Shown piece after piece: positions 34,698 through 35,597 of a DNA stretch of 64,000 bases. The position numbers and the translations under genes were made by a program. Every line of letters starts with the position of its first letter. Position 1 is the first letter of the stretch. Origin of the DNA: Shigella phage sb3; sequence record PQ666541; one strand, 5' to 3'. The notes beneath the pieces are model-generated. The model was not told the DNA's origin, searched no databases, and was given only the letters and a program-made list of their open reading frames with translations.

Positions 34698-35171
34698 TTA
34701 TTTGAATGATTTGACGTACTGAATAGAGCCTTTGCTATTCACGAAAGCGATTTTACCATTTTTGTTATACATGGTAGCAGTACGCTGATAACCATAAGTT
34801 TGTTTACCAGATTGATAACCAACTAATGCGAAATTATCTTCACCCATTTTATTCTGCTTAGCGCGGATACGTTCATGACCGTGTGCCATAAGAACCTTAG
34901 CGTCGCCAGTTGCAATGGATCTACGAGTTTTTTCATCTTCAACTGTATTAACAAAATCGTCAAATGAATCAAATTTAGCATGAGATTTATTATACAGTTT
35001 TCCATCTACTGCATAATTATATCCCTGTACATCCATCTCAACTTCTGTACCATCATCCAATACAGCAGTGATTTTTTGACCTTTTTTAAATTTCAAAAGA
35101 TCAGTAAAAGATTCAGCGATAATTTGAGAATTAATAGCTGCTTCAGCAATAAATTCTTTATACGTTTTCAT
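34698..35171 (-). CDS. Internal-protein-like protein with capsid targeting sequence
   Basis: 157 aa starting MKTYKEFIAEAA, the T4 CTS consensus; late promoter upstream. Confidence 0.55.
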   Translation of the reverse strand: MKTYKEFIAEAAINSQIIAESFTDLLKFKKGQKITAVLDDGTEVEMDVQGYNYAVDGKLYNKSHAKFDSFDDFVNTVEDEKTRRSIATGDAKVLMAHGHERIRAKQNKMGEDNFALVGYQSGKQTYGYQRTATMYNKNGKIAFVNSKGSIQYVKSFK

Positions 35172-35180
35172 ATGTTTCCT

Positions 35181-35597
35181 TTAAATGTAAATAGTTTTAC
35201 CGTAGTATTTATACCAGTATGGCTTCATTAAAATTTTTTCATCGAGTCGTTGTTGACTCAACTTAATAGCTGATTTGCATGGATTATAATCATTTTTCCA
35301 TTCTGCTGGAATATCGCTGATGTCAGGAACTTCAGTATCTTTTATACTAAACCCACGTTTTAAGCATTCCGTTATAATGTCTGATTGACGCTTTCGCAAA
35401 AATTCTAACTTATCGTAAAAGAACGTGACATGACCAGAACCTAAAATAAACTCGGAAGATATTTTAAAATCTTTAACCCGCTTACCATTTGCAACATGTT
35501 TACGAACTATACCAAAAACACGCGGCAGTTCACGGTATTCTGCGATTAAATGTTGATCAGCAAGTTCAGATACTAAAGTCAAATTAATACGAGTCAT
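35181..35597 (-). CDS. denV: Endonuclease V (pyrimidine dimer DNA glycosylase) DenV
   Basis: 138 aa, [29 protein letters not shown]..., Thr2/Glu23 catalytic positions conserved; about 75% identical to my memory of T4 DenV. Confidence 0.88.
35206..35213 (-). promoter_or_regulatory. Late promoter TATAAATA
   Basis: Minus strand gTATAAATActacgg about 35 nt upstream of the CTS-protein ATG. Confidence 0.5.

Follow-up and report, generated by a model that had tools for sequence, protein, structure and literature searches.

A gene next to denV in Shigella phage sb3 is predicted to encode Ip4, a named internal protein of T-even phages

Introduction

[quoted passage not shown] In phage T4, the first 10 residues of IPIII are enough to bring a protein into the prohead core. 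Within its CTS, targeting depends on positions 4 and 7 and processing on positions 8 and 10, and the gp21 protease cleaves after L/I-x-E (PMC9026906). T4 Ip1, Ip2, and Ip3 each inhibit one different GmrSD type IV restriction enzyme (PMC12373910) and IPIII is required on E. coli ECOR17 (PMC9391042). Outside T4, the CTS protein Bas37_0260 inhibits McrBC (preprint 10.1101/2025.11.20.689424).

A stretch of 64,000 nucleotides of Shigella phage sb3 (record PQ666541), referred to here as the window, was analysed. A first-pass annotation of its letters had described ORF 34698..35171 as encoding an extra CTS protein beside denV, driven by a late promoter. The identity of this ORF, its targeting signal, locus, and transcription, and the possible function of its product are described below.

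Identification of the ip4 gene

The product of ORF 34698..35171 begins with MKTYKEFIAEAA (MKTYKEFIAEAAINSQIIAESF...). It matched PHROG 3155 "internal virion protein" over its full length (E 4e-101) and Pfam PF24183 DUF7412, where it scored 317 bits (cut-off 27) with residues 1-157 aligned to profile positions 1-158. The CTS-bearing ORF is a real protein-coding gene, as had been noted earlier, and the family to which it belongs carries the annotation internal virion protein. In the viral structure library, UniProt Q38388 "Ip4 [Enterobacteria phage K3]" ranked first (97% identity, TM 0.89). The mature domain is 100% identical to that of the T2 gene and to that of the RB32 record (ABI94947), which is annotated "Ip4, similar to T2, RB70 Ip4". 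Copies with 73-75% identity are named "Ip4 protein" in phage S16 and several Klebsiella phages. Going by these sequence matches the ORF is almost certainly ip4, coding for an internal protein of T-even phages that already has a name.

With the mature domain as tblastn query Ip4 was found in 470 phage records. Identity was at least 99% in 291 of these, T2 among them, and 60-80% in another 159, mostly from Klebsiella and Salmonella phages. The region 34600-35700 was 99% identical to Shigella phage pSs-1 (Tequatrovirus) and 731 phage records matched it. The source of the window is a pSs-1/T2-like Tequatrovirus. The antisense ORF 34980..35231 on the plus strand was read as a by-product of the AT-rich sequence. 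Rfam predicted no RNA family in or near the ip4 ORF, the tRNA cluster being the only match.

A literature search on DUF7412 returned no papers. The original description of Ip4 is reportedly, and probably, that of Repoila et al. 1994. The link between Ip4 and that paper comes from papers that cite it, from the RB32 annotation note, and from the UniProt name of the K3 protein. The gene is already on record together with its name and targeting signal, as is the variability of its locus, and the discovery value of the present findings is small. Coordinates are given in Table 1.

Table 1. Features in and around the ip4 locus of the window (positions are those of the whole stretch).
Feature	Position	Strand	Basis and details
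ip4 coding sequence	34698..35171	minus	ORF listing; 157 aa precursor, ATG start, stop codon included
Capsid targeting sequence, residues 1-10 (MKTYKEFIAE)	35142..35171	minus	Pattern match; gp21 cut predicted after Glu10
Variable linker, residues 11-20	35112..35141	minus	Ends in second I-A-E; probable second gp21 site after Glu20, inferred
Leader with Shine-Dalgarno sequence	35172..35192	minus	ATTTACATTTAAAGGAAACAT; overlaps last four denV codons and stop
T4 late-promoter-type octamer TATAAATA	35206..35213	minus	Inside denV codons Trp-Tyr-Lys-Tyr; formed by Tyr-Lys-Tyr (TAT AAA TAC)
ip4-vs.8 spacer	34593..34697	minus	From 34682 down matches T4 sequence directly 3' of denV (GGGAACAAC/GCTGGACCTCATGATT...)
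vs.8	34005..34592	minus	Local gene list
vs.7	33679..34059	minus	Local gene list
vs.6, GrcA/YfiD-like autonomous glycyl-radical cofactor	33310..33672	minus	Motif RVSGYAV; so annotated in T4 and pSs-1
denV (endonuclease V)	35181..35597	minus	PHROG 1183, E 8e-62; Pfam Pyr_excise; 78% identical to T4 DenV
e-denV intergenic region	35598..35656	minus	Early-promoter-like (GTTTAC ... TAGTAT); three sequences compared by eye
e (lysozyme)	35657..36151	minus	PHROG/Pfam
Two TATAAATA octamers upstream of e	36165..36185 (36165, 36178)	minus	Same pair in T4, RB32, and T2
Two tandem CTS ORFs	40210-40773 (187 aa), 40899-41372 (157 aa)	minus	MKTYAEFLTEAA, MKSYAQFLNEAV; PHROG 2280 paralogues
85-aa CTS protein at ipI locus	43653-43910	minus	MKTFKEFATKTTITE/S; PHROG 3499

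Gene order and the set of internal proteins

The gene order is e-denV-ip4-vs.8 in the window and e-ipIII-ipII-denV-vs.8 in T4, where ipI lies between 57B and the tRNA genes. T2 and RB32 (loci L077 and L075) have the order e-ip4-vs.8 with denV absent, which fits the classical higher UV sensitivity of T2. Across 19 denV-containing T4-like IMG/VR loci (L003-L021) both flanks of denV carry many unrelated CTS genes of 86-198 aa. The slot between denV and vs.8 holds ipIII in L011, L012, L014, and L020, an Ip4 homologue in L015, and ipIII or other CTS genes in L005-L010 and others. Ip4 sits in a polymorphic internal-protein locus around denV.

A looser CTS protein pattern found four ORFs in the window, all on the minus strand and starting at 34698, 40210, 40899, and 43653, and so recovered the three further CTS ORFs reported in the first-pass annotation. 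When T4 IPI, IPII, and IPIII were searched against the window by tblastn, CTS matches only were returned. The description of the protein as an extra one on top of the three of T4 does not hold, as the window has no homologue of IPI, IPII, or IPIII beyond the first ~13 residues. It has a different set of four, not three plus one. The set is Ip4, a putative Ip5, and the two PHROG 2280 paralogues. The possession of four internal proteins, which had been contrasted with three in T4, is no surprise, variable sets being textbook knowledge for T-even phages with at least 10 such proteins reported (PMC12373910). The contrast of three with four reflects T4 as one among many combinations.

Ip4 was also considered as an allele of a T4 internal protein, a possibility raised at the first pass. 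For IPIII, BLASTP aligned residues 1-13 only. For IPII a weak, CTS-driven alignment was found (31% over 77 residues, E 1e-6, a single comparison). This possibility was dropped because the mature domain is unlike IPI, IPII, and IPIII by BLASTP and tblastn.

Neighboring CTS genes and other features

The product of 43653..43910 equals the RB32 protein annotated as "Ip5, replaces ipI" in size and position, and was matched to it by these two properties. Its gene is flanked by 69-nt direct repeats (43600-43668 and 43930-43998) that are 83% identical and contain early-promoter-like sequence. The ipI locus is also home to the McrBC-inhibiting CTS protein in phage Bas37 (preprint 10.1101/2025.11.20.689424).

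PHROG 2280 is labelled "unknown function" and not internal protein. The two PHROG 2280 genes are each bracketed by a terminator-like 40-nt G+C-rich hairpin followed by T's (40168-40207, 40855-40894, and 41414-41453). At the corresponding position in RB32, the record describes the 157-aa RB32ORF133c as surrounded by a "34 bp imperfect direct repeat". A copy of TATAAATA is located at 41413-41420, upstream of the 157-aa PHROG 2280 gene. Rfam predicted 10 tRNA genes on the minus strand between 41770 and 42598, compared to 8 in the corresponding region of T4. The segB homing-endonuclease gene is absent from the ORF listing of this region, unlike T4 and RB32.

The start of vs.8 is split between two frames compared to T4 (34560-34690, minus strand), and so the called vs.8 ORF starts later (MDNSCAMEW...). 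Residues 1-32 and 26-219 of T4 Vs.8 match different frames in pSs-1 and L003, both of which are 99% identical to the window here. A conserved hairpin, CCTCATGATTCTATGAGG, was found at 34651-34668 just upstream of the called vs.8 start.

Targeting sequence and predicted cleavage

A degenerate back-translation of MKTY[Q/K]EFIAE had one site in the window with 0 expected (100 shuffles). Tyr4, Phe7, Ile8, and Glu10 are all present in the Ip4 CTS. When 14 homologues of the Ip4 family were aligned Phe7, Glu10, and Glu20 were invariant, position 4 was Tyr or Phe, and position 8 was Ile, Leu, or Met. Residues 11-19 were variable among these members and had a pLDDT of <50 in the structural model. The search for a gp21 site after the CTS, which had been suggested at the first pass, found two L/I-x-E motifs in Ip4, namely I-A-E10 and I-A-E20. 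The P3 residue of Glu20 was I, L, M, or V in the family. Cleavage by gp21 is predicted after Glu10 and probably also after Glu20, which is invariant and has a hydrophobic P3. The mature protein computed for a cut after Glu20 has 137 aa, a mass of 15.5 kDa, and a pI of about 9.3, with 22 K+R against 17 D+E.

The remotest homologues among 1.84 billion representative proteins begin with MNFEQFLNES or MNFKDFLNES. As these still have a CTS-like start, the CTS seems to be both ancient and constant in the Ip4 family. The gp21 protease and the gp22 scaffolding core are presumed to be encoded by the phage, and by T4 synteny would lie beyond the window, given that the region is 99% identical to Tequatrovirus pSs-1. 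A literature search for virion proteomics or injection data on Ip4 found none. From its CTS and family, packaging of Ip4 into the head and its injection into the host are judged likely.

Predicted structure and remote relatives

The structure prediction suggested at the first pass was carried out with AlphaFold2 (pLDDT 78, pTM 0.73). In the Ip4 model a helical propeptide is followed by a beta-hairpin (33-55), three helices (70-103), and a beta-meander of four strands (113-156). A Foldseek search against viral models gave no match other than Ip4 itself and a PDB sequence profile search with Ip4 gave no match under E 0.5. As modelled, the Ip4 fold is an orphan and is uninformative on the target. 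A profile search of the 1.84 billion representatives returned four clusters with E <1e-10. All four resemble Ip4 and have a CTS-like N-terminus, and neither bacterial nor enzymatic relatives were found among these representatives. Two motifs are invariant in Ip4, GYNY..GKLYNK.HAKF and GEDNFAL.GYQ.GK, and both are kept from E. coli to Serratia phages.

Cassette junctions

The 21 nt upstream of the ip4 ATG (ATTTACATTTAAAGGAAACAT) are identical to the leader of T4 ipII and near-identical to that of ipIII. DenV ends in GKTIYI here compared to GKAIYA in T4. This change is explained by the last codons of denV being ipII-type leader (ATTTACATTTAA, 35181-35195). The denV/leader junction looks like a microhomology crossover at ATTTA. 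On the other side T4-type sequence resumes at 34682, so ip4 is an insertion of ~510 bp at the T4 denV-vs.8 junction, bounded by the leader.

In phage PinkRuby a 105-aa CTS gene stands between denV and ip4. Positions 35142-35192 of the window, comprising the leader and the first nine ip4 codons (~25 nt; K5, A9), match the CTS of this PinkRuby gene. From codon 10 on the window ORF is ip4 sequence. In pSs-1, T2, and RB32 the ip4 CTS has Q5 and T9. The targeting sequence of ip4 in the window is an apparent recombination or gene-conversion tract, chimeric with the CTS of a neighboring cassette. Recombination within the conserved leader and CTS would shuffle or delete cassettes, and the denV/leader junction and the chimeric CTS both fit this. 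Repoila et al. 1994 reportedly proposed cassette recombination through the leader and CTS. The window adds the denV/leader junction and the chimeric CTS as small details on cassette movement.

Transcription of ip4

An exact TATAAATA octamer is present upstream of ip4 at 35213..35206, as the first-pass annotation had noted. It is on the coding strand with 34 nt between its last base and the ip4 ATG. The accompanying claim that the gene is driven by a late promoter was weakened, since the octamer is expected from the denV codons and absent in the close relative PinkRuby. The window has 12 copies of TATAAATA compared to 10.9 ± 3.0 expected from shuffles. Local codon usage (TAT 77 vs TAC 16; AAA 146 vs AAG 28) alone predicts the octamer at Tyr-Lys-Tyr with p about 0.69.

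It is conceivable but doubtful that selection has made this octamer a late promoter dedicated to ip4. Its exact sequence, spacing, and strand are those of such a promoter. It would also agree with T4, which has TACAAATA at the same denV codons and no internal-protein gene downstream, and with L004, in which the same denV allele without ip4 carries TATAAGTA. Against this stand the count at chance level and the codon usage. PinkRuby has the same denV allele and a CTS gene directly 3' with an identical leader, yet carries TACAAGTA. An Ip4 homologue lies downstream of TACAAATA in the denV of L015, while the octamer occurs in L013 and L022 although neither has an internal-protein gene downstream. 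T2 and RB32 have ip4 without an octamer of its own. Over T4, RB32, T2, PinkRuby, and 21 T4-like IMG/VR loci, no association was found between TATAAATA in denV and an internal-protein gene downstream. With its count at chance, predicted by codons, and not tracking the downstream gene, the octamer does not speak for design. Little beyond the octamer is required of a T4 late promoter, so this putative promoter in denV may well fire.

Other sources of ip4 transcripts were also considered. The e-denV spacer is homologous to the spacer before ipIII in T4 and to that before ip4 in RB32. On the strength of this homology it may work as a T4 early promoter. A generic sigma-70 scan did not list its promoter-like site. 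Late transcripts that read through into denV and ip4 could also start at the two octamers upstream of e. A scan of the minus strand between these octamers and ip4 predicted no terminator-like site.

Discussion

The identity of the ORF as ip4, its CTS and cleavage motifs, its locus, and its cassette junctions are directly supported by the data. Packaging, cleavage, injection, and an anti-restriction role are what we infer for its product. The ip4 gene would be transcribed together with e and denV, rightward to leftward in the window. The transcripts would likely come from the early-type promoter of the e-denV spacer. Late in infection the two late promoters ahead of e would contribute, and possibly also the TATAAATA octamer in denV. 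Translation would start from the same strong leader as that of T4 ipII and ipIII. Through its first 10 residues, the CTS, the precursor would then attach to the prohead scaffolding core. There gp21 would remove the CTS after Glu10 and probably trim after Glu20, leaving a basic protein of ~15.5 kDa in the DNA-filled head. Ip4 would be ejected into the cell along with the DNA. Once in the cell it would most likely block one specific "first-response" defence of the host, with a type IV (modified-DNA-dependent) restriction enzyme as the most plausible candidate. The whole chain of Ip4 identity, packaging, cleavage, injection, and anti-restriction is considered probable.

The anti-defence idea was already part of the first-pass annotation and fits the findings on T4 Ip1-3 (PMC12373910). 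By analogy with these proteins we lean towards a specific anti-defence role for Ip4. In the screen of Silas et al., ip4-10 gave no reproducible inhibition with any of 15 GmrSD groups, "ip4" in that study being matched to the present ORF by name (PMC12373910). T2, which carries Ip4, is restricted by the GmrSD of ECOR17 and by that of ECOR21 (PMC12373910), and so neither enzyme is a target of Ip4. These negative screens would be explained if Ip4 acted by a new fold on a defence other than GmrSD, such as a McrBC-like enzyme, another type IV nuclease, or a non-nuclease early sensor. The inhibition of McrBC by Bas37_0260 shows that CTS proteins can hit such a target, and the orphan fold in the model points the same way. 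However, the 15 groups screened represent a very diverse family and 8 of the 15 were active against T-even phages, so a GmrSD enzyme may still be the target of Ip4. A target outside GmrSD is regarded as a tentative, rather unlikely reading. If true, naming that target would explain what one of the most widespread orphan injected proteins of T-even phages does, Ip4 being carried by T2 and by about 470 sequenced phages.

It is also conceivable, though improbable, that packaged Ip4 has no specific host target and that its role, as a basic DNA-associated protein, is mainly structural or physical, helping to assemble the core, neutralise charge, or eject the DNA. The basic charge of mature Ip4 would suit this, as would the lack of a target for ip4-10 in the study of Silas et al. 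Internal proteins of T4 are abundant at about 300 copies each. Without IPIII, heads assemble at half the rate and the burst is smaller (PMC9026906). On the other hand all three T4 internal proteins and Bas37_0260 have specific restriction targets. The long invariant motifs kept from E. coli to Serratia phages suggest a specific surface over bulk charge, and the cassette-like presence and absence of ip4 among close relatives fits an accessory gene in an arms race.

Comparison with known systems

The closest relatives of the window protein are Ip4 of T2, K3, RB70, and RB32. It is the same protein with the same length and leader, and vs.8 is downstream in all. In T2 and RB32 ip4 comes directly after e without denV, whereas in the window denV separates ip4 from the putative e-proximal early promoter. 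The ip4 CTS of the window has K5 and A9, as in the PinkRuby CTS gene, compared to Q5 and T9 in T2 and RB32.

T4 IPIII and IPII share with Ip4 a near-identical CTS (MKTYQEFIAEA), an identical or near-identical leader, the same neighborhood, and basic mature proteins. Similarity to Ip4 ends after about 13 residues and their genes are on the opposite side of denV. Each of IPIII and IPII inhibits a GmrSD enzyme, while the screen of ip4-10 gave no reproducible hit (PMC12373910). Bas37_0260 is a CTS protein from outside T4 with a demonstrated role against type IV restriction, indicating that the wider repertoire of internal proteins is functional. It was compared by description alone and, unlike Ip4, is encoded at the ipI locus. 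The model for the proposed action of Ip4 is T4 IPI*, the inhibitor of GmrSD from E. coli CT596, which is packaged by its CTS, cut by gp21 after I-x-E ~19-20 residues in, and injected together with the DNA.
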